The notes below the pieces were generated by a model. The model was given only the letters and a program-made list of their open reading frames with translations. It ran no database searches and was not told the DNA's origin. 64,000 nt of DNA from Obrimoposthia wandeli. Taxonomy: Eukaryota. The stretch lies in assembly GCA_977020255.1 (NCBI GenBank), contig CDROCS010002056.1:124001-188000 (forward strand), given 5' to 3'. Below, one piece after another: positions 34,101 to 63,806 of this stretch (the stretch's first letter is position 1; every line of letters starts with the position of its first letter). Made by a program: the position numbers and the translations under genes.

Positions 34101-37100
34101 TCGACAATAGAGGGTCACGACTATACCTTAAAATCCTCATAACCTTTCTCAGCCAGACACTTATGGTGTGGCAAATCACCCTTGTGAGATTGTGTATGCA
34201 CACAAGGGGGAGGATATCAAGTGGCCTAGATTCCATCCTTCCACAACATTAACTACAAATAAAACAAAATCTAATATTTTTGTATTTGTTCTTATTTTAC
34301 AAGGGAAGACCCATCTCCTTTTAAGTTGTTAAATTTTAAATGTATAGTTTCTCCAAAAATTATAATATAATATTTAAACTTTTACATATTCAACTTCTAA
34401 ATTAAAAAAATCTAACAAACTATCATATCGAATCGGAAAGTCTAATATAAACTATTTAGAATACATACTTTTTTATTATTTTATGGACGAAATAATTACT
34501 ATTATCTATTGAGATTTTTCAACTACTTACTGTCCATTGTTATACTTTATTAATCAATCTTCTTTATTACAATGGAGTTTAAACAATGATGGTACTACTA
34601 ACTGCTGACAGAAAATAGGAAACTTTCTTTCTTGAATATGTATAGAACTTTTATAACAATTAAAATTTGATTTATTTATTTTAAATTTCTATAGTTAATT
34701 ACATTGAACTTCAAGACAGAAGACCCAATGTTTGTTATAGCGAATCTCCAACGAGATTCAAACTACATATTTTACAACACATAAAAGAAAAAAGTAAAAC
34801 ATTATGCAAACAAATTTATTAAACATCAAAATAATAAATATTGTTATGTTGAGTAAAGTGGAATGTTGCCTATTTGTTTTATGTATATTCTTGGAGTAGA
34901 AAACACCCGCAACCTACATTAACTATTAATGTAGCATCCCTGTAGCCGAACTAATGATGTATTAGCAGTCTTTCGGCATCAGTAAGGGTTGTTGTAGTTT
35001 GCTGATTATTCTAGAGTTACCGAATCAAGAATATCTTTTAGGTGACGCAGGTATTCGAAGATATTTTAGAAATTAGTACAGCAATAAAGTGTTGTTACGT
35101 TAATATCCAGCATTTATTACATAATCTTTAAAAATGATTAAAAATATTGTTACACAATAATTAAAAAAGTTCTTGACAGAAAAATAGAAGATAACAGTCA
35201 TTCATTTTCATAAAATAATAATATTATGTTATGTCATGACCCTGAAAAATTTTTATTAATTTGAAAAATTATAGAATAACAAATTTAATATTTTTAAAAA
35301 TATTTAAATATTCCTGTTAAATAAGGTGTTCCTCTTTTAATCATTATAATTTATCCCAATATTAATGATTTTTTAAATTTATAAGTTTTTTAAATTAAAG
35401 TAATAATGAAAAGCCTATATACTTATAAAATGTAATTGAAATACTTTAATTTTGGTATATACTAATCCTTGATTATTTCAGATTCTCGCGCAATCAAGAC
35501 GTACATAAGAACAAAGAGTGGTCGTCTGATAGAGAAGATAGTCTATATGAATGAGGAAGACTACAAGGCATTCCTGGATGCAATTGCTAGAGGTGAAGAC
35601 CCCTCAAAGATTCTGGAAAATTACTTGAGCAAGGATGATATGAAGAATCTCGACTCTTACGACAAAGACGAGCAGGTGGCAGTCAAAACTTATGTTCGTA
35701 CAAAGAGCGGGCGACTGATTGAAAAGATTGTTTACGTTTCGAAGAAAGACTTTGAAGCTATGCAGAAAGGAGAAATTGATGCGAATGAATTTATGCGCCG
35801 GAAACTGGGACTAAAGAGCGGTGAGAAATTGGAGGGTTGGAAAGAGTCAAAGATGCGAAAAGTGATGATGAAAGTTAGAACGAAGAGTGGTCGAATAATC
35901 GAAAAAGAGGTGATGATTTCTGAGGAGGACTATCAAAAACTGCAGGCTGGAGGCAATCTGGACGAGATTATGAGCAAATATATGAAGCCAGAGCCAGGAA
36001 CGAAGTTGCTGGGTTGGGAAAAGAAAAAGAAACCAGGAATGAAGGTGGTCAAAACCTGGGTGCGCACAAAAAGTGGGAGATTGGTAGAAAAAACCATTAT
36101 GATGACTGAAGAAGAGTATGCAGATTTTGTAAAGGGTGGACAAAATCCCGATTTTTTGAAGAAATACTTGAATTTGAAAGAAGGAGAAACAATTGACAGA
36201 TGGGAGAAGAAATCAACAGTTTATGAAGGTTCTGATGATGAAAAAATCCAAAAAGGTATGACTTCATTAATTAAAAAAATATATTTTCAATTTTTTAAAT
36301 GTTTTGGTTAAAACATTTCGAATTCACAAAGTTGAAATACATTTTGAGTACAAAGACTTATTTAGTTTAAGTTAATTTCATAACTGTAAATATTAATTAT
36401 AGGAGAATTTATTTCAGGTAAAAATATTCCTGATTTTTAATATATTTTTAAATTTATTTATTTATTCTCAAACAAGTTGGTTGACAAAATATTTCCTCCC
36501 TAATTCCATTATTTTATTTATTTGTTTGTTTAAGTTAATATTGTAACATACGTTGCGCTATTTTTAAATTGAAATGATTAATTACTCTTAATTACCTAAT
36601 TAACCATTTCTTCACCATTATTTATACCTCCTAGATTTTTGGGAGATTATAGATTTTTTCAAATTTATATTACATCAATGTTACTTCATTAAGTGGTTTT
36701 ATTTTCTTTATGAAACTTTTGTGTTTTAAATATGTTTGTTAATCTGTTAATTTTATGAAAAAATGTTAATTTTGGTCGACATTTAATCAATCAAATCGAT
36801 TTAAATAAAAAATACAAATGTATTCGCTAAGCCTACGGTTAATAATTAACAATAATCGAGACTTCGGACCAACTGTTGTAATTATTATACTCTTTTTTTC
36901 ATTTTTTAATTTCAATACTATTTGCCTAAAACATAATAGAAACATTAAATTATTATAAAAGCCTTAGTTTTTTTATTTTTATATCTTTTATGCAGTTATG
37001 TTACAGAGCTAATATTTTTGAGAATATTTTCGATTTTCACTTTGATCATTTATTTTTTAATTGTTTACATCAAAGCAAATAAGCAAATTTCATGAATGCC

Positions 37101-40100
37101 AATATAAGGGAATTCATCCATTTAAAGAAATTATTGTCTTAAGTCTTTACAGGATAAATTTATGACAAAACAGTATTACTCATGATAATTAATTGCTGAT
37201 TAAGAAAATTGACTTAATAAGCAATAAATTTAAATGGGTCAATCAGACCGTATTTCTGTTTGTACATTACGGTACCTTGTTTTATGTGATTATGTTCACG
37301 TTGTTGTGAGGCTATACATATCCAGTGGTTAATATGAATTAAAAGTGGGATTGTAAGTTTAAAGACTAGACAGGATATATGAATGAGAGAAATTGTAGCA
37401 TCACAATGTATTGGAGAATTCTGAAAGATGTAACATAATACACTATTGAGAAAGCAAATATAGGTTTAATGAGTTAGTAGCAAGGATCTAAATAATATTA
37501 ACACGACTTAGAAGAAGATATGACTCAAGAAGCAGTTATATATATACCAGACAATGCTACAAAAAGTTACCACGAATATTAGTCTAATATTTTTGGAGTA
37601 GAAACGAAAAGAAAGATTGGGAGATTCTATTGAAACATTGCTGAAATATGCCCAGCAATTTACAAAAGATTTAGAAACGCAGATGAAATAGCACTAAGGA
37701 TGGATAGTAATATTAATAAACCAATTAAAGTTTATTCTAACATAAGCTAAGCCAATGTGGTGGACTAAAAAGCAGTTGATAGGGACAGCAAACATCAAAT
37801 TGGAAGAAAGTATTTACAAAATTGTACAAGAGAACGTTACAGTGATCAGTGCAGTGCGTATAAGAAATGGTTTGTGGCAGACCAATGGAAAAAAGTAAAT
37901 GACAAAAAGTTGCCTAATAAATGTTTACAGAAATGTCATTAAAATGCAAAAGAAGCATCAAGACAGTATATGAAGACATATTAGTCCGATTGACCTGATC
38001 CATTTGCAAGTTCAACTAAAAATGATGGTGAATTCGTGAGTAGGTAGATGTGGCACTTCTGGAACAAAGCCCCCCCTGAGGACAAAATTTTTTCAAGGTC
38101 AAGTTGAGGACAAAAAATGTAGGTCAAGTTAAGGTCACGGTGAGGTCAAGATGTAGGTCATGACCTCATGAGGTCATGACCCCCCTATGCTCAGGAAAAA
38201 TGTCTTTGTCCTGAAAGACACACATCAAGTAGGGGGATGTGTGTCTTTCAGGACAAAGACATTTTGAGCATACCCCCCCCTTGAGCACAGTTTAAGGTCA
38301 CGGTGAGGACATGACCTCATGAAGTCAACTTAAGGTCACGGTGCGGACAAGATGTAGGTCATGAGGTCAAGTTAAGGTCAATGTACTTTAAGGTCATTAC
38401 GTCATGAGGACAATGTACTTTAAGGTCAAGTTAAGGTCATGATGAGGACAATGTACTTTAAGGTCAACTTAAGGTCATGACGTCATGAGGACAACTTAAG
38501 GTCACGGTGAGGTCAAAAAGATTTTATTTTTAGTAACATTCTTTAAATCTATATATCTTTTTATCTAAAGACTGTATTAACACCAATTCAACAAAATACA
38601 TCTAGTGTGTGTGTGTGTTTTATAATTTAAATTAAATTATCTACTTATAAAATAAAGTATTATATAATTTGATAAATTTATTTAAACTAAATTAAATTAA
38701 ACTATCTACTTATAAAATAAAGTATTATATAATTTGATAATCATGTTTAAACGTTCCTATATCTATCTAACAAAGACAGTCACGTACTGCATCTATATTG
38801 CAAAAGCCTGCAAATTTATGTAAATAAAGACAAGTATTTCAAACACATATATTCCTTAAAATCACAAAGGAGAATAAAAATATGTACAACACATATAAAA
38901 AGTTTATACAACCTCGTCCAGGTATAAAAAGTGACCATAGGCGACTGAACGGTTTTTCTCCACCCACTTGCGCTTATCATCACTACTACTTAAGGCAATT
39001 TTACTTAACCTTACAGTGAAAAGTTGATGATTTAGCGAGCTTATACGTTGTTGTTGTACACGCTCGCTAACGCCACTCTCATATACGGCTAAGTAATTAG
39101 AGTGCCTAATACTCGTCTGTCGGAGACTAATACCTTTCGCTCTCATCTGAGATTCACCTTCTGTAGTCTCTAGGCTATATGATTTTGGTCGTAGAAAAAT
39201 CCCTTGCCTATAACTAAATAATCCCTTACTCTCATCTTTAAATTTTCCTATCGCTGTATTAAGCGTCGTATAAAGCGGATGGGATTTTGGAAATTTCGAG
39301 ATATCCAACAGTCCATCAGCAATCATAGCAGGTAACAGTGATTCTTGAACATTGACATTATTACACTTCAAGAAAAAGCTATCAGTGTCACCCGCTATAA
39401 TTCTAATGTCGCAGTTAAATTGAACTCGATATTTCTCCAACTGCTCATATTGTAGATCATACATACGAAGTTTGCTTAAATCTAATACCGCCTGGCCCAT
39501 GTAACTAGGACGATCCAAAACAATATTTTCCTTATCCAGTAAAACTGCAATAAGATCCGTATCGATTTCGATTGTCCTACGAAAGTGGGCTTTACTGCAA
39601 TAGGTAACCAGCTTCTGTGGAGTATTACAAATCCGGAAATTAATTCTTTTCATTAGATTCTCAATGAGTTTTCAAAATAAAGAATTCACCTTCAGTTTAT
39701 AATAATCCCGCTCGAAATCTGTTGTAGCCGCAGCTCTTTTGAGAGAATTATCCTCAATATATTTTGAAAAAACATTAGTTTGTTCAAACTGTATTGCTCT
39801 ATATACAAAATCTACCTTAGCACCAAGTCTAACGTACATTTGTAGTAATCTAGAATGCACAACATAATGTTTCTTAGGGTAATGCGTTAATAACAATTTT
39901 TCAGTCTTACACCCTGGTGGACGCTGTTTAATGGGAGCAAGGGGAAGATCGTCGAATTTATTATGAAGCTCGAAGGGAATGGATAAATCTATTTCCAATA
40001 AATGAGCGAAGCGACTACAGGATAAATCTACTGATTTTAAACTGGAAATAATATTCCCCAACTCTAACCGATCAGTCACCCAGGAAAAGTTACCACAAGG

Positions 40101-43100
40101 TAAAAACTGGGACATAGCCCACCCGTACAAATTATTTAAATCAATGTACAAAAGTTCTGTACCATTGATGGCGTCAACGCGGTGTTCATTAACAAATGTC
40201 ATACCCCCGCGAATCCCAGACCGGAAGAGTCGGTACATTTCTGGATCCTGTATTAGCTCGACTCGCACAAAGGGAGCAGAAGAAGAAGCCGGACGAAGCA
40301 GGGATTTGAAAGCACTCGCGAAAGTCAGTCCTGGAAATAAAAATATTTATTAAAATCATTGTGAAAATCATTGTGAAAATCATTACTTTGAAAATCATCT
40401 ATCTAACAAAGACAGTCTCGCATCTATATTGCAAATACTTGCATCTTTATGCAATCAATAGTAACAAGTACTACATTTATTCTTATACATGTATATATAT
40501 ATGTGTTAGTGTCTAAAATTAGAAAAAGTTAGTAAAATACAAACCAGGGATGGAGAAGAAATTGAGTGGCTCCAATCCATCGTCAGCAATGGCCTTGGTC
40601 CGGAATGCTGTAAACACGTCTGCTAGAAGGTAGACGTCCATCTTCATATAGACCAGCATATAGTCCCAGAGCGATGAGTAGTCGCTCTGAGTCCAGACCA
40701 TCTTCGCCATTTCATATTGTGCTGGCTTGATCTTCTCATCCCACTTTGGCGGTAAGCTGGTGATTGCGCGAAGAGCAGTCTCTGATACTGCCATATCGTA
40801 TGGGAAGATTCCCTTGGCGCTCACCAGATGTTGCGGGAAGACCGAATGTGTAAGAGGAGTCACACCCAGGTTTTCCACAAGTTTTTCTAAGCTGCTGTTC
40901 AAAAATTGAAGGGAATCGATGAAACGTATACAGACTCCTCCAATATACACCATCATAGCCTGGAATTTCTCTGTTGATTGAGGTATAACAGATACATTCC
41001 AGTCGGGAAAATTGCATAGTGCGTGCTTCAATATATGGAGCATGTCATAACCCATAAGATTATGAAAAATGACGGGAAAAGATCGATTGATTCTCCTTGA
41101 TAAGTTGCATTTCGTATGCGCTGCTCCCAGGTATTCGCCAGTCATGTGATCGTGATCTCGAACTTTGTTTGCGAGTTTCTTCTTACACAGGTAACAGATT
41201 CTTGCTGCATTGAAACTCGATACCTGTTCCTGTGTGAGTTGTCGCATCACCTCGATCGCATGCTTCTTGTACCATGGGAGAACAACCTCTTTCGCCAAGT
41301 CCTCTAATTTTTGCAAAAAGGATACCACACAAGATTCCCCGGTAAAGACCGAGTAATCATGTGTATACCCTCTCGTGGCTGCAACGGGAGACATGAGCAT
41401 ACCGGCCGAGATTGGAAGTTGAATCTGATGGTGGATTCCATGTGGCGGCAGCACAGCCTCAAAGTCCGCGTAAACAGCAAAAGGCGGAGAAATCGTTTTT
41501 GAAAAGTCCTTAAACTCAATATGCTTCTCTGTAGGCATTGAATAAATAATTTGTTGATTGATGCTTGCTTATATACTATTTTCGAGCTAGTATTAAGCCA
41601 ATCAGATTCATTCATTATTTAAACCAACCAGATTAATTTAAAACAGAATAGTTTACTGACAGATGTGAGTAGTTGAATTTTCATTAATATTTAAATAATC
41701 CAAACTAGCTGCAAAGCATTTCTTGTATGCACAATGCTCGCCATGTTTAATATATGGACAATTGATATTTGATGGATTTAATTGTTTTAATGTTTTCGAG
41801 TAATTTATCACTCTAAATTCAGGAAAATATTTATTGATTGTCTTTATTTTAGCTCCATTATTTTCATCCAAAACATAGAAAATTGATTTGGATACATCAC
41901 AACAACGTTTTATTTCCTCAGTTATTTCTTGTATCTTGAAATAACTATTACCATCAACTAGTTTTAGTCGATGGTAATGCTTAATGAGATATCTATTTAT
42001 TTTTCTTGATTTTCTATTCATCATGTCCCATATGGGTTGCATTTTAAAAACATAATGTTTAGGATAGAAGATTGCATCCACATCTATTATACATAGTTCT
42101 TTTATTACAAATTCAGTATTATTATCAATAAAAGCTTCAAAATCAATAAAATAAACAGACATTTTTATAGCAATAATTTTATTTGATATTGTTTATATCT
42201 ATTGTTTATGCTTTAACCAAAGCAGAGAGAGTTGTCCACATGACTGTGTTAAAACATTTTGATAATGTTTCTTACTAAAATGTACTTTCTTTCCAGAATC
42301 AAGTACTGTAGATACTAATTTAGAAGGGTAATATATCCCAAAGGGGTCAAAAACAAAGATTTCATTTTCTTTAACATGTATTGCAATCCAATGTTCACCA
42401 CGCAAATTAGATGAATGTGTATTGATTACATATCCACCTAGTCGAGTCAAAGACTGATCAAGGCTGTAGACTCCATTGAAACACGTACCGAGTAGTTTTC
42501 TTCCGCTTTTTGTTATCTCGTCCGAACTAGAATATATATTAATTAATAAATTCAAACTGACTTACTTCATTTATATATCTTCTTTATTGTTTTCATTCTG
42601 TTTATACTAGTACTGTTCCTCCCTTGGTAATTTGAACCTCAGAATCGAATACTCCATAGATTATAATATTAGTAGGGTGTTCAAGTGCTTTTGAAAACTT
42701 GATTTCTACTTTCAAATTTACCTGTTTAGGGATTTGAGCTTGATTAATATCGAAATCAGGAGAGAGAACAAATGTGAACAGTGTATACTTGTCCTTGAAA
42801 TCAGTCATTGAAATTCCAATATTAGCATCCTTATCCAAATGACCAAGATTTCTAATTAAAGATTGCACATAAGAAAACACATAATCATCGTTTTCAAAGT
42901 CATTCGTATAAGATTCTTGATAATCAATATTTCGTGCAAGTTTAATTGAACTCACATTCATGTGTCCAAATTGAGAAACCTCATTTTTAGACTCACCTCC
43001 ATAGGTAGACGTGTTTTGGAAAGCAATTAAAACAAAGTTTGGAAGTTGCATATCACCAAAAATCTGATCCTTGTAATAAGATAGTGCTCCCGTAGGGATA

Positions 43101-46100
43101 GCGTGAGAAACAAGATTAGTTTTTCTAATAGGATAACATGCATTTTGCTTCTCCAACCCCATTCGATGTGCAACAAGTACAGATGGTTCCACCTTTACTC
43201 GTCGAACCAGCAGTTTTGCTTCCGTAATCTCAATTGCGGTTTTAATAGTATCAGCGCAAACAACACTAAAACCTACTGGATTTCTTTTCATTCGAATATG
43301 TGCACTTACACCGGGTAAAATATACTTTGGTTGCTTAAAGAAATCCAAATGGAGACTCCCACAAAGTGACAATACTTTAGACTTTGCAATCGAAGCAATT
43401 CTTCTTTTTTCATCATTGTCAAACCCAATTGCATCAAGATTAATCAATTTCGTATCATTACCGTAATTCAACAATGTTTCAATCATTGCTTTATGACTGT
43501 AACTAGTATTATTTCCCTCAACTTTCACATTATTGAGACTGAGAATCACATCCTTGAAAAGAGTATGCAACATGTAATTAGCTGATTTGATATCCATACC
43601 ATCATCCAAATCACCTCCACCTTCCTTTGTAACTTTCAATTTAACGAGAAATCAACTATCATTCAAATCAAGATATTGAGTATTGGATCCATTAATATTG
43701 AATTCTAAATCCGGAGAAGATGTCCCGTTAACCGTATTTGTTGGAAATATTTCTTCAAAACTAGCACTATCAACCACAACCTGAGGTATAGGTTTATCGA
43801 ATATACACAATTCAGTTTTAGCACAACTCATTACTTAAAAATTGTTCCACCTAGTTTCAAACGTTTGAGTGAACGTACATCCTCTTGATTATAATGATGC
43901 ATCTTTAACTTTAATGTCGGTAAATCATATTTTTGATTTGGTAATTCCGATTCATAAAACATACTTTCAATAGGAGCTTCTTTCATACCGTATCTTAATG
44001 CTAAACTTTTATTATCAATTTCTAAATTGAAAGCTTGTCCCGTAGTGCGAGTTATACAAATTTTGTTTTCGCCGCTAAGGTAAATAACATATTTACTATT
44101 AATTGGAGTTAAATACTTGACGAAAAATTCTCCATGTTTCATTTTCACACCAGCTTCAACTTCAGTTTTTATTCTTTTCTCCGCAACATAATCTATAATT
44201 GACCCTCCTTTAATGGATAGAGGAGAGTAATTGAAAGAAAATTCCGTCAGAGCAGCTTCCCAATGCCCAGGTAAATTGATTGAGCTTTGATAATCAATAC
44301 TAAAACTATTAGCAGTATTATTCGGCTGAGTTAATGGTGAACCATTACTTGGTAATACAACATACATTGAGTTCATTCTATTTGAGAAGCTAATATCCAA
44401 CTAGGTTCAGTATATCCATGCCACTTAACATGATATTGTTTATGCTTTCCTCTACCTTTTGTCTCTAAAATTTCTTGGATTCTATATACATTTGATTTCT
44501 CAGGCAAGACTTGTAATTCCTCATGATAAAATTTACCCGTGATTACATTATTGGTTTCATCCTCAATGAAATACATTACCGGCATACGTTTATTATCAAT
44601 TTTAGTTATACGAAATACTTCATCGCTCCAATTCTCTTTGAAATTCTTTATAAAAGGAGTAGTACTAATTTGAGAAATACGTACATAATCACCAACTTTA
44701 TACTTGGGTTTCCGCGCAACTTGACTTTGGTTACGGCGTTGCCAAATTTCCATAGCATTCTCATCTGTAACATCAACGGGTCTCTTTCGGTCTAATGATG
44801 AGTGTTGACTATGATTGTATGCATGTATTATTTGAGGTAAAACAGTAACCCAGGACTTATTTCCCTGCTTTGTGAAATACGTTTTCAAACGATCTCTCAA
44901 TGTTCGATTAAAACGTTCAACTAAAGCGGCTTTATATTGGGAAAATACTGAGTAATGATTAATATTATGTTTTTTCAATAGTGTTTCAACATGTTTATTA
45001 TAAAACTCCTTTCCACTATCCGTTTGGAAATTTCTTGGTTTTATTTCTTTAATCAAAAGCTTCATTGCGGTTAAAACATCGGTACCAGACTTAGACTTTA
45101 ATGGAATAGCTCGCGCGAATCTGCTAAAGACATCAACACAAGTTAAAATATATCGATATCCGTCGTTAATACTCGCATACGGAATCATTTCCATCAAATC
45201 TGCTTGCCATAAATCATTCGGGCCGCTCGTTTTGTATGATCTCGTTGGGAACCGACGTCTCATTGGTTTGTTTAAGCTGTAAGATAATTGATTTCTCAAC
45301 CACGCCTGAGTTTCCTGCTTTGTCTTCTTTGACTCTTTTGCTAATTTTGAAACCCCTGTGTAACCAACGGGATGACTTGGATCGAACCATATTTTCTCCA
45401 TTGCAGCAAGACGATTTGATTTTTAAATTGAATTTAGGAATAGATGGAAGTGATCCCATATATAAATTCATATTATTGATTCGAATTTATGTTTATAATC
45501 ATCGGTTTATTAGTCTACTAGCAAGTGCACTAACTATTGAGCTAATAATTGGTACGAGAAATCCTAAAAATCCACCACTTTGCTTATAAAGCAACTTACG
45601 TTTACCGATTCGTGTTTTGGCATGAAACAAAGCAAGTAGAGGTTTCTTATGCCGATTCAGGTTAGCCTTGACAATTATTTTACCAGAAACTATTTTCTGT
45701 ATCATATTAAGTAAATCATCAATTACAAAAGTAGGGAATGATTTAAGAATAGCTGGGCGGCGAATAGCAGGTGCACGCATGAGAGAATTGAAATAGGCAA
45801 TACTCCTAGATTTCTTAACAACAGTTCTTTTCGATTTTTGAGCAACCATTTTCCTTGCACTTAAAACTGATTTAATCAATTTTTTAACTTCGGGTTTAAC
45901 AGTTTCCTTTTTAAAATTCATCTTCTCAAAACTGGTTTCTTTGTTTGTTTATAGACGGTTATTCCCGATGGATTGAATACATCAGTTCTAACTCTAAAGT
46001 CATCGGGACAATCTTGAGTAAAATCAATAAAAATGTATCCATGAGGAATAGTAGTTGCATCTTGAAATGAATCAATTAAAAACTTTCTATTATTCGGGTA

Positions 46101-49100
46101 AGCTTGTCTTGAAACAAATTCAACAACCGTCTGATCACGTGGATTCTTGAAGAGAACAAGGTAATGTACATTTAAATTACGAGTTCTATGGTTCCCTCCT
46201 TGATGAAATAGATTTTGTGTGATGAAAATAACAGTTACTTACCGATGTCGAGCTATTTTAGTGAATAAATTATTGAGATCACTCTCTTTATTTACTTCTT
46301 GATATAAATCATCAATAACAATAACATCATGTCGTTGTAATCGCTCAGACCAATTATCATCGAATCCATTAATGACTTTTATATTTTTGATTTTCTTAAA
46401 CTCTTTACTGGTTAAACCAGCTTCTCCATCTCCTCCCTGATGCATGTATATTTTATTAAACTTAAAACTAAAGTATTTATTATTTTGCAGTAATTTACAT
46501 ACAAAGTGTGTTTTCCCACTACCACTAGGACCTACAATCTGAAAAACTGAATTATTTTTTAAGTTCATATTAAAAATATTAGATTATCGGGATAATGTTT
46601 ATAAGACAAAACTATTTAAAATATTTTATTACGAAACATCCAGCAACAAACAATAAAAAACTCTTCTCGTAGAAAAAGCTCCTTTTCTCTTCTTTGTTTG
46701 CGAGTTTCTTCTGATTGTATCCCTGAATGAGAAGATTGACTGCCTTGTCGTGCACCATTCTTCTTACGTGCTCCTCCAGGGGTAGATTTGAGACATCAAT
46801 GAGTTGTAGGACATCTGGTTGTATGACATTCTTCGAGATGAAGACACTAAAGACACTGACTAATAAAGACACTAAAGACACTGACTAATAAAGACACTGA
46901 TTAAAGATACAGACGAATAAAATTTACACATGATAACGATTAAAAATACGTATTTGATGAAGCATAGCTTCATTAGGAGCAGCAATAGTCCGTTTAGCTT
47001 TAACAAGATTCGAAGCAGCAGTAACACCAATCGAATGAGATAAAAATGCAATAACAATGCAAGCAGCATGTAAACTACCATAATGACTACATACTAAAAT
47101 ATTACCACCATTTTCGATAGTTTCTTTAATTATATTATTAGTCTGTTTATAATACTTCATTATTGTTTCTCCTAATTTTGAGTTTACAAAGACAGAAGTA
47201 TATTTTAATTTCTTATAAGATATTTTATCCAGTATAGATGTATTGATTACATGAGTGAAATTGGAATTCAAAAGATTAGTTTCATCAAACCCATCTCGAT
47301 AATTACCAATATATAATTGATTTACTAAAATCTCACTCATCGCTGTTTTGTTTAACTTTTCTACATTAAGTTGAGTAAATCTAGCACTAAACAAACTATC
47401 AAAATGATGGGTCATGTGGTTCATTTCCATACTCGAAGCATGAGCTATTATGGGTTCCATAAAAGCCAAAGCATTTAAAAAATCTATCCGTCTCTTATCT
47501 TCAATAATTGGATCTATAATAATTTCTTCTTCTATCGTCACTTCATCAATAGTTTCTTCTCTTCTTATAACTGTTGTTATTGTTGCTGGTGGTGATGATG
47601 TTACTGATGATGTTGCTGGCGATGATGTTGTTGGCGATGATATTGCTGGTAGTGATGATGTTGCTGGCGATGATGTTGTTGGCGATGATATTGCTGGTAG
47701 TGATGATGTTGCTGGCAATGATGTTGCTTCTGGTGCTGAATTGATTTTCTCCATTTTATCAATTCCGAGTCAATTTAGTCTTATATATTAAACAAGGTTA
47801 GATTTCATTGGAGCATCAGTTTCATCATATGATTTGATTGGAGTATTATTCAATCTTTCCATTGTACTTAACATCTCATGTAAATGTAGTTGATGACGTA
47901 ACCTAAAGAGTTAAATAAACTACATATAAATATTACTCATGATTATTTTTCCTAATTAAAGCATTGAGAATAACTGAAGCAAGATCTTTTAATGCATCCT
48001 GAACCTCTTTACATTCAATAATTTCATCCATTTTATGATAAAGCAAATCAAATATTGTTTATAACCCATGAAAAATCTATTTTTAGACCACAACTATTTG
48101 CAACATTACAACGTTTGCAACTATTTGCAAGTAATGACATGTGATGTCTTTGTCTTAGTATAAACAATATTTTGATAATGATTTTATTGAAAATGGATAA
48201 TCAAAATAATCAAAATAATGAAAGTAGAGCTAGTACATACATAGGTTCCGGTAGTAATTTATATTCTAATATGAATTATAATAGAAATAATCAGAGAGAA
48301 CATATTAATCCATTAAGTCAAACAATAACAAGTCCTACGCGCGTAACCGAAGAACGTGAACCCTTTAAGGATATGACTAATACTAGACGATAAAGAAGAA
48401 TATTAACCAATTGAGACTAATCGATTTTCATAAACAAGAATATCGACCAATTAGAATCGAGCTTTAGAGGATAAACAATTGAATATTTCAATTTATAATT
48501 GTCAATATGAATTTCGAAAAGCTATATCAACCTATGCATACATATTATGGATATGAGATGCACTTTTTGAAGAAAGCTCATAACTATAATTTTATTTTTC
48601 CTGTCAACATCGAGCCGCTTAAATTTGATTTTGAAATATCAAATTTGACTTCTGTGGATAAAGAGAGAATCAATATTCTCTTGACTCAATTCGGAATCAA
48701 CTATGTGCTTCAGGAAAACAAATTCGTAATCAAAGGATCAACTGCCACTTTCAAGCATGAGAATGGAACAATATTCGATGGACCTCCTCCTAAGCTAGAA
48801 TGGATTCTCTCAATCAGAATTCAAGGTTGCAAGATCGGGCCCAGTGGATTTGAAACTCCGATATGGAAAATAATTGATGCTGTTAGAGTTGACTAATAAA
48901 TATTTGTGTCTTTATTTGTATTATTTTATATATATAAACAATAGTGATACTTTAATATTTATTATGAAAATGACTAAAAAACCTACTAAATCATTAAAGA
49001 CTAAGGTTAAAAAGACTATGAGTAAAAAGACTATGAGTAAAAAGAAAATCATGGAGGGTTTGGGTATTCATATGATGGCAGCAAATCTTTTAGGTAGATG

Positions 49101-49370
49101 GTTTGGCGGAGTTGATAAAAAAGCTATAAAGCACAAAAAGAATGTGGATTATTTGAGAGGTATACAAAATCAGAAACGAGTGCAAAAAGGAGATGGTATA
49201 CAAAAAGGGGATGGTATGCTTGATATTTTTGTAAAATTAGATAAACTTACAAAAGCATTTGAAAAGGATCCTAGTGCCTATCTTGGTCCAAAACTAAACA
49301 TTTTAGCAAACCAACCAAAAACTTTGTAATTACATTGCAATATAGATGCAGAGTGTCTTTGTTAGACACT

Positions 49371-49412
<42 letters not shown>

Positions 49413-52400
49413 AATAAATGTTACTATTGATTACATAAAGATGCAAGTATTTGCAATATAGCTGCAGTACGTGACTGTCTTTGTTAAACATAGGAACGTT
49501 TAAACATGATTAACAAATTATATAATACTTTATTTTATAAGTAGATAGTTTAATTTAATTTAGTTTAAATAAATTTATCAAATTATATAATACTTTATTT
49601 TATAAGTAGATAATTTAATTTAAATTATAAAACACACACACACACTAGATGTATTTTGTTGAATTGGTGTTAATACAGTCTTTAGATAAAAATATATATA
49701 GATTTAAAGAATGTTACAAAAAATAGAATCTTTTTGAACTCACCGTGACCTTAAGTTGTCCTCATGACGTCATGACCTTAAGTTGACCTTAAAGTACATT
49801 GTCCTCATCATGAGCTTAACTTGACCTTAAAGTACATTGTCCTCATGACGTCATGACCTTAAGTTGACCTTAAAGTACATTGACCTTAACTTGACCTCAT
49901 GACCTACATCTTGTCCGCACCGTGACCTTAAGTTGACCTCATGAGGTCATGTCCTCACCGTGACCTTAAACTGTGCTCAAGGGGGGGGGTATGCTCAAAA
50001 TGTCTTTGTCCTGAAAGACACACATCCCCCTACTTGATGTGTGTCTTTCAGGACAAAGACATTTTTCCTGAGCATAGGGGGGGTCATGACCTCATGAGGT
50101 CATGACCTACATCTTGACCTCACCGTGACCTTAACTTGACCTACATTTTTTGTCCTCAACTTGACCTTAAAAAATTTTGTCCTCAGGGGGGGGGCTTTGT
50201 TCCAGAAGTGCCACATCTACCTACTTTCGTGAACAATTCTGGTGATAATTTATAAAGGAGACAATACAATAAAAATGAATGCCTTATTGTATGAAGTCTG
50301 CATCACAAGTTATATTAGTTAGGCTGTTAGATTAGTTGAGATTCGACGGAATTTAAAGTAATATCTAAATCGGAGAACTTGGGAAAATATTGAAAGAAAT
50401 GGTATGTAAAAAGGTATATATATATTTATATATCAGAAAAAGTGACAAAGCGTGGCAGGTAACTCTTGAGTAGGCAAGTTGACGTTTATGTCGATTAGGG
50501 TATCGAGTTCCACACCATTGCCGATGAGGTCTAGCTCTTTTAAGCTTTTGAACTCATAGAGGTATTCGAGTGTATTCAAGACAGTACTCGTTGACATTGA
50601 TGCTAGGTATTCGTTATAACCAAAATCTACTGTATACGATTTGTGTTAAATCAAAACATGTAGTTTATAAGAAAATTTCAGTTTTTAAAATTATATCAAT
50701 TGATTAATGAACACAACTCAGGTTATATTCAATATCCAACATCAATAACAATCACTTCAATTGTTTTGCTTGTCGTAGATAAGCAACAATAAGTTACTGT
50801 ATATATATATTGATATCAGAGTTTTGTTCCACATTGTTGATAAATGTTACCTTCAAATTTGAGAAAGATCAGGGTAAGCCCTTCAATAAGTCACAGTATG
50901 TTAGAAACTCATAAGTTGGAGACTAGATTAACTAGTGAAACAATGCTGAAGCCAATATAGGGAATATTTAGTATTTAAAATATTAAATTTGATTGAAAAA
51001 AACTGACTTCATATTTAGAAAGTTTCCATTGTAGATTAGGGAAAACTAGGCGATAAATATACATAAACCGGTATTTTTATTTAGCTAAACTAGGAAAGCG
51101 GTATGTTGACAAAGACGGGAATGAGTACGAAGTCGTGGTAGATCCTCTAACTGGTAAGAAATATAAAAGGTGGGCACTATAGATTTCTTGAAAATTATCT
51201 TAAAACAATAAATCGAATTTTCATGACATTTTCCATTTTTTAGAATTCTACAAAAAGCAGATGGTCTTCCTCCAAAGTTCAGAACCAAAAGTGGAAGAGT
51301 AATAACTGAGAAAGACATACAGAAAAGGAAAAACCTCAAACAAGGAAAAAGGAATGAAGACAGCAATAGTGACTTCAGGTTTGTCTGATGATAATTTATT
51401 TTGATGTTGTGTTTATTAAAAAAACATCTGATATTTGACATTTCCATCTCGAGTATCCTTTATAAATATTCTATAACTTTAAAATAAAATGTTTAAACAA
51501 ATTAGACAATTAGTATACCGTCAAATATCGGCCTAATGTTTTCCCTAAACTGTATTCAAATCCAGGAAGAGCTTACTCCTCCAAATGAGTGCTTGCTTAT
51601 CGGACAATCTCATTTATATGACAAATGTCAAGGCTTGAAGTAGTATATTTTATAAATTTTATTATTATTGCTAAAAATATAATTAATAATTTTCTAAATA
51701 GTTTTATTCATGAATTATTTTAAATCATTCAGTTATTCAGTAAAATTTCTCCCACGCACCTATACATATGGGTATGGTAGGTCTTATGCAGCATACCTGG
51801 TTTAGTTCCGTGTCAGATTTAATTCAGCTTCCATCTATGTCTTCATGGGATGGCACCGCCCGGGTTGGTTCCTGTGCAACGTTGCTGGTATTGATGTTGA
51901 ACTCATTCCATCTAGAGAAGTTATATTACAATAAAAAATCTAAATATGATCTCGAGTTTATCTTTGCTATTCGTTTGATGGCTGGGTGGTTTCTTTCGAC
52001 TATTTCATTTTCTTTGAGTCGGTAAGCACAACGTAAAGTTTTTTCATATCTCATTTCAAACAGACATTTCAAACAATTTCTGATGGAAAACGTAAGCCAT
52101 TCTCCATTAACAGTTTAATCACAGGTCCTCTTTATCTGAATAATTCGTCAATAATCAAAGAATTCCATACGAAAATATTTCTTGACATACAGTCAATCAA
52201 TTTCTTTTCGTAATAAGTTATGTTGATTTCTAGTTATGACTATTTAAAAAAAATATTTATGTGTTTCAATTTTGATTTAGGATATATATATATATATATA
52301 AATTGTCTCCCATAAAATTGAGACTATTGTCGATCCAATTTGTCAGAATCCTAGACGACAATCAATGCATTTAGAAAAGCAAGTGGATGAAATGATTGAA

Positions 52401-57917: not shown

Positions 57918-59170
57918 TGAATTTAATTAAAAGCAATCCGAACATTTACAAAGTCTCATTAATGAAAAAAGATTTTGATCTGAATTTTATATTACAACAT
58001 TTAAAATAAATTTCACTTCAAATATTTTTCATTTAATTTAAAGTTATTCTTAAGTGTTGAATTGTTTTTAAAAAAAGTAATTACATTTTAATAACTATTG
58101 ATTCAATGTCTACAAAAAATAAATAATTTAATTATATAATTAAATTATAATATAGTAGGTATAATATGTGTGACTTCTGGCACAAAACCACCCCCCTCCG
58201 GGGGGTCTGAGTAATGTCTTTGTGGTAAAAATCTGTGACTCATCGATGACTCATTACGTGATCTCATGAAGTCAAGGTCGCTCTTGAATGTGGTTCTTTG
58301 AGGTGGTTCTTTAAGATAAGTCTTTGAGATGGTTCTTTGAGGTGGTTCTTTGAAGTAGTTTTTTAAGGTAGTTTTTTGAGGTGGTTCTTTAATATGGTTA
58401 TTCGAAGGGGGTTCTTACAAAGTTAACCTTCAAGGTTCTAAAACCTTCAAAAATACATTTTTTCTACTTTTTAAAGTTATATATGATAGGCTTGGTCTGA
58501 CCTTGGTTAGATCTTCGAGGGTTAGACCTTCAAAGATCAAAATAATCAACAAAAAAAAATTTCCAAAAAGTCAAAAATATATTTTTAAAATAATTTTTGT
58601 TTAAATTTTCAAAAAATGTTCAAAATTCAAAAATTTTTAAAAACTTTGAATATTTATATTTTTTTACTTTGTATTAATAAACAATATGAGATTATCTCAT
58701 TGTTAATGATGATATTACCATATGTTTATTGTTTGTATATGTACATGTAACGATAAGATCTCAGCTAACTTTTGTATTCATCCTAATCTCGATTGTATAT
58801 GTATATGTATTTATATATTTAAGTAATGATGAGATCTCAAACAACTGTTATATGTCAAGTGCTGTGTTAAAGTGAAGAGTTAAGCATCACTAGCATATGT
58901 GCATAAGTGTATTCATCAATGAAGTAACATCTGGTTTATCTTAATTAGATTTTATCAGCAGCTGTCATGTTCAAGTGATCTGTTTATATTTAACGACAGC
59001 TGCTATTTTGATTAATTATTAATAATAAAAATTGTAAATGATTTTTTTAAATTAATTTTACTTCAAAAAACTTCAAAATTTTTTTTACTTCATATTTTTA
59101 AAACATATATTTCTTAAAATCACAAAGGAGAGCGAGAAATGGAGAGTAAAAATATATACACATAAAAAGA

Positions 59171-61940
59171 TCATATAATTTCGCCCTAATATAAAAAGTG
59201 TCCATAGGCAACTGATCGATTTTTAGTAATCTACTTGCGTTTATCATCACTACTGCTTAAGACAATTTTAATTAACCTTTCAGTAAAATGTAGATGATTT
59301 AAGAAGCTTATACGTTGTTGTTGTACACGCTCGTTACAATCAGTCTCATAGATGGCTAAGTAATTAGAATGTCTACCTTTAGCTCTCATTTGAGATTCCC
59401 CTTCTGTAGTCTAAGCTATATGATTTTGTCGTAGAAAAATACCCTGCCTATAACTAATAAATCCCTTGCTCTCGTATTTAAATTTTCTAATCGCTGTATT
59501 AACCGTTGTATAAAGCGGATTGGTTTTTGGAAATTTTGAGGTATCCAACAGTCCATCAGCATTCATAGTCGGTAACAGTGATTCTTGAACATTTACATTA
59601 TTACACTTCAAGAAAAAACTATCAGTGTCCCCTGCTCTAATTTTAATATCACAGTTAAATTGAGCTCGATATTTATCCAACTGTATATATTGTAGCTCAT
59701 ACATACGAAGTTTGCTTAAATCTAATACTACCTGACCTATATAACTAGGACGATCCAAAACAATATTTTCTTTATTCAGTAGAACTGCTATAAGGTTCGA
59801 ATCGATTTCAATTGTTCTACGAAAGGGGGCTTTATTGCAATAGGTTACCAGCTTCTGTGGAATATTACAAATCCAAAGAATAAATATTTTCATTAGATTC
59901 TCAATGTGTTTTCTAAATAAAGAATTCACCCTTAGTTTATAATAATCTTGCTCGAAATCTGTTGTAGCTGCAGTTCTTTTAAGATAATTTTATACAAAAT
60001 ATACCTTAGCACCAAGTCTAACTTACATTTGCAGCAATCTAGAATGTACAACATATTGTTTCTTAGGGTAATAATTTTTCAGTCTTACACCCTGGTGAAC
60101 GCTGTTTAATTGGAGCAAGGGGGAGATCGTCAAATTTATTATGTAGCTTATTGGGTATAAATAAATCTATTTCCAATAAATCCACTGATTTTTAACTAGA
60201 AATAATATTCCCCAACTCTAATCGATCAGTTACCCAGGAAAAGTTATCACAAGGCAAAAGCTGGGACATCGCCCACCTGTATAAGTTATTTACACCTATA
60301 TACAAAAGTTCGGTACCGTTGACAACATCCACCTTGTGTTCGTTCACGAAGGTCATACCCCCTTGAATTCCGGACCGAAAGAGACGATACATATTCAGAT
60401 CCTGGATGAGCTCCACTTGTATAGAAAAAGCAGCAGCATAGGTATCAGTATCAGCATCCGCCCGAAGCAGTGACTTGAAGACCGATGCAAAAGTTAGTTA
60501 TGTAAAGAGAAATATAGATAAAAATATCAATAAAACATTTACTAAAATCATTACTTAGTAAATATTTACTTATCATTACTTATTAAAAATTAGTAAAATA
60601 TAAAGATTCAAACCAGGTATGGAGAAGAAATTTAGTGATTCCAGCCCGTCGTCTGCAATAGCCTTGATCCGGAATTCTGTAAAAAAACATCGGCTAACAG
60701 TTATATGTCCATCTTCATGTATACCAGCATATAATCCCAGTGCGATTTGCAAACACTCTGAGTCCAGACCTTCTTCGCCATCTCATACTGTGCTGGTTTA
60801 ATCTTCTTGCTTTAAATCGGTGGTAAGCTAATGATAGCACGGAGAACAGTCTCTGATACTGCCATATCGTATGGAAAGATCCCCTAGGCGCTCACCAGAT
60901 GTTGAGGGAAGACATAATGTGTTAGAGGAGTAACACCAAGGTTTTCAACAAGTTTCTCAAGCCCGCTATTCAAAAAATTCAATGAATCTATAAAGCGAAT
61001 AGAGACTCATTCAATATGCACCATCATATCCTAAAATCTCTCTGTTGATTGAGGTTTCACATAGACACTCCAGTGCAGAAATTAAATCAACGTTTGTTTC
61101 CGTATGTGGTGCACATCATAACCCATCAAATTGTGAAAAATGACGGGAAAAGAGCGATTCACTCTCCTTGATAAGTTGCATTTCGAATGCGCAGCTCCGA
61201 GGTACTCTTCAGTCATGTGATCATGGTTGTGAACTTTATTCACTAGCTTCTTCTTACACAAGTATCAGATTCTCGCAGCATTGAAACTCGATACCTGATC
61301 TAGTGTAAATGATCGTATAACTTCGATGGCTTGATTTATACCAATGGAGTACAACTTCTTTCGCCAACTCCTCTAACTTATGCAAAAAGAATACTACACA
61401 ATATTCTCCTTTAAAAAGCGAGTAATCGTGTGTTTACCCTGTTGTGACTGCAACGAGAGACATGCGCATACCAGCTGAGATTGGTAACTGGATCTGATGA
61501 TGAATTCCATGTGGTGGTAACACAGCCTCAAAGACGGAGAAATTGTTTTGGAAAAGTCCTTAAACTCAATATGCTTCTCTGTAAGCATTGAATAAAGTGT
61601 TGAATGTTCCAAATTCATCCTACAGAGTGGAACGTGCTTGACGTAACTTATCGGTCTCCGGAACCCATGGAGACACTTATGGCACCAAGTACACTGGATA
61701 CGATTAGATACACCTCTCTTCCTATAATTAAGTAGCCTATTTAGTTTAGGAATAGCGACATAATTAGAATTATCATTATTTTCTAAACGGAAAAGAATAA
61801 TTTGCGTAGCGTCCACATATGGATTTGTAAAGATATCTCAATCCGTTTGTACATTAGAAAACCTTTTTAATGTAAATACGTTGATTGAGATAGATGGGTT
61901 CTTTCTCTCAAATCGCAGTATATTATATAGACGCATCGGC
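59171..61940 (-). pseudogene. pPolB: pPolB relic of copy C, multiple frameshifts, retains more N-terminus than copy B
   Basis: AGDTDSFF, NNLYRWAM, CHKCLHGF..HVPLC; intron donor at the same codon as in copy B (~60614). Confidence 0.9.
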
Positions 61941-62374
61941 ATCTCATCCTTTTCAAAAACTAATCAAAAACTATATCTCAATATATTGATTAACGCACTG
62001 AAGATTAGTATGAAATACTTCGCGAAAAAGCACAGCTAAGATGCTGTATAGAAAACAAAAGTGTTAGAGTTCTGCACATTGATTACGCAATGTGAGAGCG
62101 CTAACTCGGATGGGGTAGGTATATAACTACTCACCTGGAGATAGTTCATTGTTGTTGTTTTAGTCACAACAAACGAAATCTACAGGAAGCGGGTCACTAC
62201 CCAATTACTGACACTCTGTGAGTAATTCTCAATTTTCTTGTTGATGGCATCTACTCCTGCATCTATAAATCCATAGTAGTATATAGTGTCGGTAATAACT
62301 CAAAGCGACAATGAGACCTCCCTGGGGGATTTGTAACTTTGAGTTAGAACCAAAATTATAGGCTTTAAAATATG

Positions 62375-62598
62375 TCAGACCAATTATCATAAATCCATTA
62401 ATGACTTTTATATTTTTTTATTTTCTTAAACTCTTTACTGGTTAAACCTGCTTCTCCATCGCCTCCCGGATGCCAATAAATCTTATTAAACTTAAAAGTA
62501 AAGTATTTCTTATTTTGCAGTAACTTACATAAAAAATGAGTTTTCCCACTACCTCTAGAACCTACAATTTGAAAAACTGAATTATTTTTAAAGTTCAT
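62375..62598 (-). pseudogene. Packaging ATPase N-terminal relic of copy C
   Basis: MNFKNNSVFQIVGSRGSGKTHF, truncated. Confidence 0.85.
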
Positions 62599-63075
62599 AT
62601 TAAAAATATTAGATTTTTGGAAAAATGTTTATAAGACAAAGTTACTTAAAATATTTTATTTAAATACATCAACCAAAAAACTATAAAAACTCTTCTCCCA
62701 GAAAAAGCTTCTTTTCATCGCGTACTCTTCTTTCTTCGCATACTCTTCTTTCTTTTGATTGTACCCCAGAATGAGACGATCGAGTGCTTTGTTGGGAATC
62801 ATTCTTCTTACGTGCTCCTCCAGCGGTAGATCTGTTGCATCAATGAGTCTTTAAACATCTTCTTCTAAAACGTTTTTCGAGATGAAGCTCTTCGCTGCTT
62901 TATCAACATCTTGTTTGAAATATTTGGGAGTAGACATAATAATAAAGTAAGATTAAAAAGTATTATGTTTATATACTATACAACTAAAATTTTATTGACT
63001 GCTGATTAACAAAGACACTGACTAATAAAGATAATAACTAACAAAGACATTGATGAATAAAATTGACATATGATA

Positions 63076-63806
63076 TTAATTAAAAATACGTATTTGATTA
63101 AGTATAGCTTCATTCGGAGAAGCTATAGACAGTTTAGCTTTAACAAGATTAGAAGCAGCAGTAACACCCACTGAAGGGGATAAAAATTTAATAACAATGC
63201 AAGCAGCATGTAAACTACCATAATGACCACATACTAAAATCTTACCACCATTTTTGATAGTTTCATTTATTATTTTATTAATCAGTTTATAATATTTCAT
63301 TATTGTTTCTCCTAATTTTGAGTTTACAAACACAGAAGTATACTTTAATTTTTTATAAGATATCTTATTCACTATAGATGTATTGATTACATGAGTGAAT
63401 TCGGATTTCAGAAGTTCAGTTTCATCAAAAGCATCTCGATAATTACCCATATATAATTGATTTACTAAAATCTCACTCATTTTTGTTTTGTTTAAATTTT
63501 CTACATTAAGTTGAGTAAATCTAGCACTAAACAAACTATCAGAAAGATGGGTCATATGGTTCATTTCCATACTGGAAGCATGAGCTATTATGGGTTCCAT
63601 AAAAGCCAAAGCATTTAAAAAATCTAATCGTTTCCTATCTTCTTCAATAATTGTCTTCTGAAAATTAACTTCTTCTATCTTCACTTCATCAATAGTTTCT
63701 TCTCTTCTCATCGCTGTTGGTGATGTTGTTGCTGGTGAATTTGCTGCTGGTATGCCATTGCTGATGGTTATGTTGTTGCTGCTGATGTATCATTAAATTT
63801 CTCCAT
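63076..63806 (-). pseudogene. Pseudophosphatase of copy C (DSP-fold domain open, N-terminal repeat region disrupted)
   Basis: ILVCGHYGSLHAACIV; highly similar to 46924-47754 across the domain. Confidence 0.8.

Follow-up and report, generated by a model that had tools for sequence, protein, structure and literature searches.

A Maverick/Polinton element of Obrimoposthia wandeli carries a gene for a predicted DUSP-fold protein with a degenerate active site

We analysed a 64,000-nucleotide stretch of Obrimoposthia wandeli DNA (contig CDROCS010002056.1, positions 124,001 to 188,000 of the forward strand), here called the window, and found that a Maverick/Polinton element in it (element B) carries a gene for a protein of predicted dual-specificity phosphatase (DUSP) fold in which the active site is lost. 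A second copy of the gene resides in another element of the window (element C), and the dead motif is nearly fixed in a large repeat family of this genome. The encoded protein may be a selected pseudophosphatase that binds a host regulator without using phosphate, an interpretation to which we assign about an even chance. The features of the two gene copies are as follows:

46924..47754, minus strand: pseudophosphatase gene of copy B, 276 codons, uninterrupted from start to stop (open reading frame list, Pfam DSPc, PDB sequence and fold matches)
47569..47754, minus strand: N-terminal tail of B, rich in Ser, Thr, Pro and Ala (48 of 62 residues), with five SP sites; differs between the copies
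47341..47502, minus strand: conserved extension before the domain, codons 85-138, predicted as a long helix with middling confidence; no family match
46939..47316, minus strand: DUSP (DSPc) domain of B, codons 147-272 (Pfam, PDB matches, structure prediction, Foldseek)
47173..47199, minus strand: general-acid loop, codons 186-194, TSVFVNSKL, without Asp or Glu
47065..47091, minus strand: degenerate P-loop, codons 222-230; the signature His, Cys, Ser, Arg and Ser are all replaced and the central Gly is kept
63076..63806, minus strand: copy C; domain open (211-codon reading frame from 63711); the 5' low-complexity part contains a frameshift, and the frame ends four codons earlier than that of B

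The Pfam DSPc model (PF00782) matched residues 147-272 of B over model positions 1-131 of 133 with 46.6 bits, and copy C scored 41 bits, the curated cut-off being 33.5 bits. The best solved relatives of B by sequence were DUSP19, DUSP22, DUSP15 and DUSP10, and STYX scored below all four. An AlphaFold model calculated with an 88-row alignment reached a predicted local distance difference test score (pLDDT) of 84.7, and Foldseek superimposed this model on DUSP22 with a root-mean-square deviation (rmsd) of 1.7 Å over 141 columns. As judged from these sequence and model matches, B and C encode a protein of the DUSP fold. HMMER searches against 1.84 billion representatives yielded 895 matches at E<=0.001, seven at 1e-10 and none at 1e-30; the 150 relatives listed among these 895 were 23-38% identical to B. 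A word-based search with residues 85-276 of B retrieved no homologue among 149 candidates, and a scan of viral contigs with the B domain gave no match. A homodimer prediction for B scored 0.24 (mark 0.32) and was not used as evidence.

To define the active-site register, B was aligned without gaps to DUSP19 and to the 150 database relatives. The signature columns read VCSHYGSLHA in B and VCGHYGSLHA in C, and HCxxGxxR in 139 of the 150 relatives listed, in which the aligned columns carry Cys in 146 and Arg in 149 cases. The column of the general-acid Asp falls on Ser192 of B, and those of the pocket Ser and Arg on Leu228 and His229. None of the six active-site positions (Cys, Arg, Asp, His, two Ser) is kept in either copy, whereas of the 19 other positions that at least 80% of the 86 reference DUSPs have in common, B retains 15 (Fisher p 0.001 against the active-site loss; one of the 19 is a start-Met artefact) and C retains 13. 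At a stricter conservation of 90%, B keeps 9 of 12 other positions (p 0.009). Not one of the 86 reference DUSPs has lost two of Asp, Cys and Arg. An alternative register restoring CX5R in B or C was rejected, as no CX5R occurs in either register. The central Gly and the length of the P-loop are retained, and the domain is basic (isoelectric point 9.3). Because catalysis by the DUSP fold needs Cys, Arg and Asp, the residues named for MKP7 (PMC4802042), and all three are lost here, catalytic activity of the B/C protein appears very unlikely. The original prediction, made from the letters of the window, had described a full DSP-like domain in which HCxxGxxR reads CSHYGSLH (B) or CGHYGSLH (C) and the general acid appears to be lost, and it is borne out on each of these points by the Pfam scores of both copies and the likeness of the model to solved DUSPs, by the gap-free register and by the acid-free codons 186-194.

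The gene was found in four sequencing runs (X1-X4), which represent one sample and may be the source of the window itself. Here, 705 bases of the gene matched between 3,021 and 9,566 contig pieces per run, in every identity band down to 80%. The gene is a large repeat family in the Obrimoposthia wandeli genome, for which the read-piece method yields no copy number. At codon 223, the letter specifying Gly made up 163,515 of a depth of 165,203 in X1 and 364,543 of 366,917 in X2, and over the four runs a Gly codon occupied the catalytic position in 95-99% of the depth. Since Gly carries nearly all of the family depth, the Ser of B at this codon is private to that copy. No variant of at least 5% was seen at codons 222, 224-230 or 186-194 among the variants listed (40 of 55). 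A loose end in X2, which came from three more diverged contigs (agreement 0.74), also read Cys-Gly in a hand translation. When the family spread, the dead motif was already nearly fixed. Its explanation as decay of two copies was rejected, since it is nearly fixed across the family.

The common variants at codons 85-276 comprised 14 synonymous and 21 non-synonymous changes and no stop (35 in total, among the 40 of 55 listed), with an expected neutral synonymous share of 0.21-0.27; codons with several variants were classed approximately. From these variants, a non-synonymous substitution rate relative to the synonymous one (dN/dS) of 0.41-0.57 was calculated, with P between 0.009 and 0.07 depending on the transition bias assumed. 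The direct comparison of B with C over 186 codons gave dN 0.080, dS 0.170 and dN/dS 0.47 (bootstrap range 0.26-0.91), and 1.15% of 2000 bootstraps reached dN/dS of at least 1. A ratio near 1, which had been named at the outset as counting against the prediction, was not obtained, though the upper bound comes close to it. B-C differences that are shared with the family were synonymous in eight and non-synonymous in eight cases. Seven one-base deletions, mostly in single-base runs, amounted to up to 14% in X1, X3 and X4 and were nearly absent from X2; they probably reflect sequencing error. In copy C the polymerase gene carries 13 stops and seven frameshifting gaps in 723 codons, and the domain carries none in 210. 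Codons 63-272 of C are free of lesions, against 3.7-5.4 predicted from the polymerase rate (P 0.005-0.02, for a range that was picked after the lesions had been seen), and for the whole open reading frame the deficit is not significant (P 0.05-0.19). The data argue for a protein under moderate purifying selection rather than a pseudogene.

Outside the domain the two copies differ. Copy C is open across codons 63-272 and its start codon matching that of B is out of frame. The domain is open in both copies, and C is broken at its start and by the early stop. The tail of B contains a tandem repeat (47605-47726) with a 48-nt period and 2.5 copies, not the 45-nt duplication originally described, and dN/dS over codons 60-89 is 1.25, calculated from only 30 codons. 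In the extension before the domain, 44 of 49 residues are identical between B and C. A query of the Atlas with residues 85-143 gave no usable match, and the last part of the B extension resembles the extension of intact DUSPs from related elements. A TATATAA box (47781-47787, minus strand) is located about 30 bases ahead of the start codon of B and is by eye not evident ahead of the matching start of C.

These intact DUSPs were found in relatives of element B. Its integrase was aligned with 38 of 120 listed homologues, and 58 metagenome loci were fetched, many of which share the gene order of B. A DUSP profile matched two of 59 loci (L020 and L011), both among the 11 with more than 1 kb of sequence upstream of the packaging-type ATPase gene. 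L020 encodes a 171-residue DUSP with HCAMGISRS and the general acid present, which belongs to a cluster of six members. L011 reads HCALGVSRS, also with the acid present, and its gene is broken by a short AT-rich insert, possibly an intron. Both genes share the strand of the ATPase, from which they are 1.2-2.7 kb upstream, and presumably lie inside their elements; the left end of L011 is a bacterial-type gene fragment. The integrases of these two loci are 58-62% and their ATPases 72-81% identical to those of B, and in the integrase tree both fall within the B clade, with other rows nearer to B. A scan of viral contigs with a single integrase returned one distant locus, which was without a DUSP, and scans of viral contigs with the L020 DUSP and with the integrase alignment gave no match.

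The same cargo region holds other regulators in relatives: a full-length TRAF-like gene and a RING gene in L020 (1545-2732 and 2867-3328), a RING gene in L005 (1710-2171) and an E2 gene in L008 (222-719). TBP-like genes were seen there in L008 (2420-2869), L010 (2175-2621) and L038 (2106-2591), with similar frames visible in L005 and L007. The L020 DUSP lies two genes from TRAF.

The intact and the dead proteins are distant from each other. B and L020 share 22% identity over 156 columns with three gap positions, and by score L020 ranks 151st of 152 when compared with database matches that had been preselected for likeness to B; in the reverse comparison, which takes L020 as the query, B comes 146th. 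The stem of the dead pair in the trees measures 1.4-2.8 changes per site, with the frame still open. The segment before the first strand ranked C first and B second of 88 in likeness to both intact proteins when 30-residue windows were used, and third and fifth of 98 with a shorter window; the longer windows had been tried second, and single comparisons of this segment gave ranks from 5th to 30th of 99. Taken together, a shared origin of the dead and the canonical Maverick DUSPs is suggested by their sequences, and one capture followed by loss of catalysis appears somewhat more probable than not. Intact relatives with HCxxGxxR, which the original prediction had regarded as refuting it, do exist, but only as the distant L020 and L011 proteins, and within the family the dead motif is nearly fixed; the canonical motif therefore points to an active forerunner and not to decay after insertion. 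The search for homologues in other Mavericks that it had proposed yielded these two proteins, and the trees leave them unjoined to B.

According to the interpretation introduced above, a Maverick lineage would have taken up a gene for an atypical DUSP, placing it in its variable cargo region, upstream of the packaging ATPase, and in the branch multiplying in this host the whole active site would have been lost and the folded protein retained. The DUSP fold and the conserved helical extension would bind a host signalling or ubiquitin-pathway protein, for which phosphate would not be needed, and this host protein would be held or displaced during replication of the element. The active-site loss across the family, the selection tests, the frame that is open on a long stem, the canonical DUSPs that related elements carry in this slot and the TRAF, RING, E2 and TBP neighbours support this scenario. 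A binding module is favoured because the fold core and the 50-residue extension are kept and the S/T/P tail varies freely, and the choice of a host target follows only from the cargo neighbourhood in relatives. A precedent for a captured phosphatase whose presence is required but whose catalysis is not is the protein tyrosine phosphatase (PTP) of the baculovirus BmNPV (PMC3320614). Descent from canonical DUSPs, expression, inactivity and any binding partner are inferred.

Several observations weigh against a selected host-binding pseudophosphatase. Of the 11 loci whose sequence extends more than 1 kb upstream of the ATPase, nine carry no DUSP there, though several contigs end early, and a third element of the window, the element A remnant (about 6400-12200), is also without the gene; since it is present in two of 11 relatives and absent from element A, the DUSP is dispensable for the clade. 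In the trees (58 rows, as a quick tree only, and 25 rows), the dead and the intact Maverick pairs stand in an open fork, and one clade for both is neither joined nor rejected (approximately unbiased test, p-AU 0.35). The polymerase yields dN/dS of 0.12-0.24 at higher dS, so that selection on the pseudophosphatase is weaker. Because the polymerase is compared at higher dS, neutral change after insertion probably inflates the ratio of the phosphatase gene more strongly. The P range of the variant test is wide, the two selection tests share sites, all four runs stem from one sample, the variants listed are 40 of 55 rows, and copies less than 80% alike fall outside the count. As to the fold, 86 of the 88 alignment rows behind the structure model are canonical DUSPs and without the alignment pLDDT drops to 33; for these reasons the model counts as supporting evidence only.

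Alternatively, the dead DUSP may be a structural or assembly protein of the particle that binds a core or capsid protein, as the baculovirus PTP does with ORF1629. The gene lies directly upstream, on the same strand, of the genes for the ATPase, the protein-X-like protein and the putative capsid proteins, and the PTP of BmNPV is part of the virion and exerts its phenotype without requiring enzymatic activity (PMC3320614). However, nine of the 11 relatives named above show no DUSP upstream of the ATPase, element A has none either, and in relatives the cargo slot is filled by host-derived regulators; we consider such a role unlikely.

The gene might also be a hitchhiking remnant, which lost its function shortly before the family expanded and was carried along under relaxed selection. 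The upper bound of dN/dS, the 21 non-synonymous among 35 common variants, a copy C that is broken at both ends with a lesion count for the whole reading frame that is not clearly below the polymerase rate, and the fast cargo turnover in the clade are consistent with this. The loss, however, is concentrated on the six active-site positions and the fold residues are retained, a selective pattern that requires time under selection after the loss. Moreover, no stop occurs among the variants listed, the one-base deletions are nearly absent from X2, and family-shared differences between B and C are as often synonymous as not. A remnant of this kind is improbable.

The original prediction had favoured a trap for phosphorylated substrates or a decoy of the MAPK pathway, that is, a STYX-like protein or one docking to ERK, JNK or p38. 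Cys-to-Gly is indeed the change of STYX (PMC8622459), the backbone amides of a loop with retained length and central Gly in a basic domain could still hold an anion, and the five SP sites of the tail and the L020 DUSP near TRAF would fit such a role. However, in STYX, MK-STYX and STYXL2 the motif retains Gly, Ile, Ser and Arg (PMC8269279), and here Arg is replaced by His and the acid is gone, which argues against the trap. Docking of the MKP type requires CH2/KIM or FXF, and the protein has neither a CH2/KIM domain, as Pfam finds DSPc only, nor an FXF motif. In the register of B to MKP7 at the conserved PN, which we assume to be correct, the following residues are EAML (PNEAML in B, PNEAIL in C) and not FNFL as in MKP7. 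In that enzyme the FXF motif lies where helix 5 begins, and JNK1 is no longer bound once F285D is introduced (PMC4802042). As to the proposed pairing with AP-1/CRE motifs in the terminal repeats, the B repeats contain three exact CRE sites and no exact AP-1 site, so that a pairing with AP-1 is not supported; the AP-1 sites are found in other places, including three at one end of the third element. Trap and decoy are both unlikely.

The pocket may instead have been rebuilt for new chemistry, with Cys222, His224, His229 and Cys232 forming a metal or redox site or with a shifted Cys as nucleophile. These four residues are identical in B and C and free of non-synonymous variants among those listed, and migrated catalytic residues are known in pseudoenzymes, the examples being kinases (PMC10211241). 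On the other hand, neither register offers CX5R. Cys222 occupies the position of the signature His, which we take to be buried, and this also counts against a rebuilt reactive site; we regard it as very improbable. A wider version, in which one clade of small animal DNA viruses carries the captured DUSP in two states, an enzyme and a descendant with an entirely rebuilt pocket (Cys-Gly-His-Tyr-Gly-Ser-Leu-His-x-x-Cys) for a new phosphate-independent ligand or a metal site, would be unlikely but consequential: if true, the pseudophosphatase would differ in kind from STYX, and a transition from enzyme to pseudoenzyme that helped the element to spread in its host could be traced in a virus. Finally, host domestication of one or more copies would explain codons 63-272 of C being spared the lesions that the polymerase rate predicts, yet the constraint is seen in variants common to many copies, C is broken at both ends and the whole-frame test is not significant, so that we hold it for the most improbable explanation.

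Among known systems, STYX (2r0b) shares with the protein preferred here, a selected pseudophosphatase, the stand-alone atypical DUSP fold (rmsd 1.7 Å, rank 18), the lack of CH2 and, in most copies, the Cys-to-Gly change. Proteins with a STYX domain keep the pocket Ser and Arg (PMC8269279), whereas in B and C Arg, Asp, His and both Ser are gone as well; a single residue separates STYX from activity (PMC8622459, PMC10211241), and B and C are borne by a mobile element. With 22% identity to B, STYX is no closer than DUSP19 or DUSP22, and the tree row sets comprised proteins other than STYX. Because the retained Arg is missing, B and C are not members of the STYX type. DUSP19 and DUSP22 are the best sequence and fold matches (24-28% identity by Foldseek), but the signature present there is absent from B. 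The L020 and L011 DUSPs share the element clade, the strand, the place upstream of the ATPase and a nearly gap-free alignment into the N-terminal extension with B and differ from it by a retained HCxxGxSRS and acid, the lack of an S/T/P tail and the low identity (L020-B). The PTP of BmNPV and the DUSPs of poxviruses and giant viruses are likewise captured phosphatase folds in DNA viruses, and BmNPV PTP has a binding and structural role, but is still an active enzyme (PMC3320614). Compared with 50 listed viral models, B was at most 26% identical, and none of these was named a Polinton protein. According to the original prediction, bracoviruses have inactive PTPs.

Described cargo of Mavericks and adintoviruses includes the genes for Bcl2, IAP and Oncoid (PMC8502044), kinases and proteases in nematodes (cited in PMC11131425) and adintovirus PP1-binding proteins (supplement of PMC11071296). 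In the Maverick, adintovirus and polintovirus literature searched (text and named supplement proteins in openly accessible papers), no DUSP or pseudophosphatase cargo was named, in agreement with the original view that such cargo was not familiar from Mavericks. The word phosphatase is absent from the main texts of PMC8502044, PMC11131425 (and its preprint), 10.1101/2024.03.25.586562, 10.64898/2026.06.19.733378, 10.1101/2023.08.22.554363 and PMC6431247 and from the covered parts of the supplements of PMC8502044 and PMC11131425. In the covered part of file 2 of PMC11071296 it occurs at seven places, which are one megavirus protein, three endonuclease-family names and the three adintovirus PP1-binding proteins; 30 of the 34 listed places of dusp in that paper are anellovirus proteins. 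Viral DUSPs, pseudophosphatases and host-derived Maverick cargo are thus known separately, and a DUSP in an intact and a disarmed form as Maverick cargo would be new with respect to the literature searched. The function of non-core Maverick genes is largely open, and DUSPs beside TRAF, RING, E2 and TBP suggest an adjustment of host signalling as in large DNA viruses. L020 and copy B represent a matched pair for testing the change from enzyme to pseudoenzyme, and since the dead form has departed more from an enzyme than the STYX proteins of animals have, whatever partner it has should show a way of binding independent of the phosphate pocket.

The host element of the gene has the following features:

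38039..50225, minus strand: element B (Maverick/Polinton) of 12.2 kb with AG...CT ends, flanked by a 6-bp target duplication (38033-38038, 50226-50231)
38039..38823, unstranded: left terminal inverted repeat, which shares 95.5% identity with its right counterpart, about 800 bp each
49431..50225, unstranded: right terminal inverted repeat
45918..46568, minus strand: packaging-type ATPase, directly downstream of the pseudophosphatase gene; split in B by an in-frame stop
45499..45921, minus strand: basic protein whose weak match to adenovirus protein X stays under the Pfam cut-off
44373..45401, minus strand: rve integrase, intact, with a weak chromodomain match
42602..44376, minus strand: putative genes of the minor and major capsid proteins, truncated or split in B, without Pfam match; relatives have two conserved genes at the place expected for them
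38904..41546, minus strand: protein-primed B-family DNA polymerase, in at least three pieces

Mavericks have AG...CT ends and a 6-bp target duplication. A location of the gene outside element B was rejected by the repeat boundaries and the target duplication, and the gene is Maverick-borne as predicted. Only one short, unassigned frame lies between it and the ATPase, and it is co-oriented with the core genes. The ATPase of B is 72-88% identical to its closest relatives, with P-loop matches and a weak Pox_A32 match below the cut-off. The capsid labels are our assumption from gene order. No adenain-like protease was found among the 12 open reading frames of B that were scanned, a scan restricted to the longer, unbroken frames of B itself. 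Element C extends from about 59100 to the window end, is internally deleted and carries the same gene at the same place. Between B and C (59093-63800), dS is 0.39-0.82 for the polymerase and 0.17 for the phosphatase gene, a contrast that may point to modules having been exchanged among subfamilies or to a composite element. Some 780 bases of this region (61597-62374) have no match elsewhere in the window. The hexamers AGGTCA/TGACCT occur 40 times in the terminal repeats of B (1.6 kb) and 15 times in the other 62 kb, which may only reflect internal sub-repeats; AGGTCA is a nuclear-receptor half-site. An open reading frame of 129 residues at 48507-48896 (plus strand) has no Pfam match and shows 26-32% identical relatives in L008, L010 and L038, which makes it a recurring gene of the clade.

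In element A, the cargo position (9265-9546, plus strand) holds a fragment of an E1 FCCH domain (30.2 bits, cut-off 29.5), and near its right end (10819-11809, plus strand) there is a gag remnant with a weak DUF1759 match, which we take to be Pao/BEL-like. Elsewhere in the window, a unit of 470-490 bp containing a Cys-rich frame of 107 codons occurs at 16424-17878 as nearly identical copies in tandem, which represent a recent duplication or an assembly artefact. A probable host exon at 35547-36311 (plus strand) contains a repeated RTKSGR unit and has 36 relatives that are 40-60% identical, without assignment to a family.

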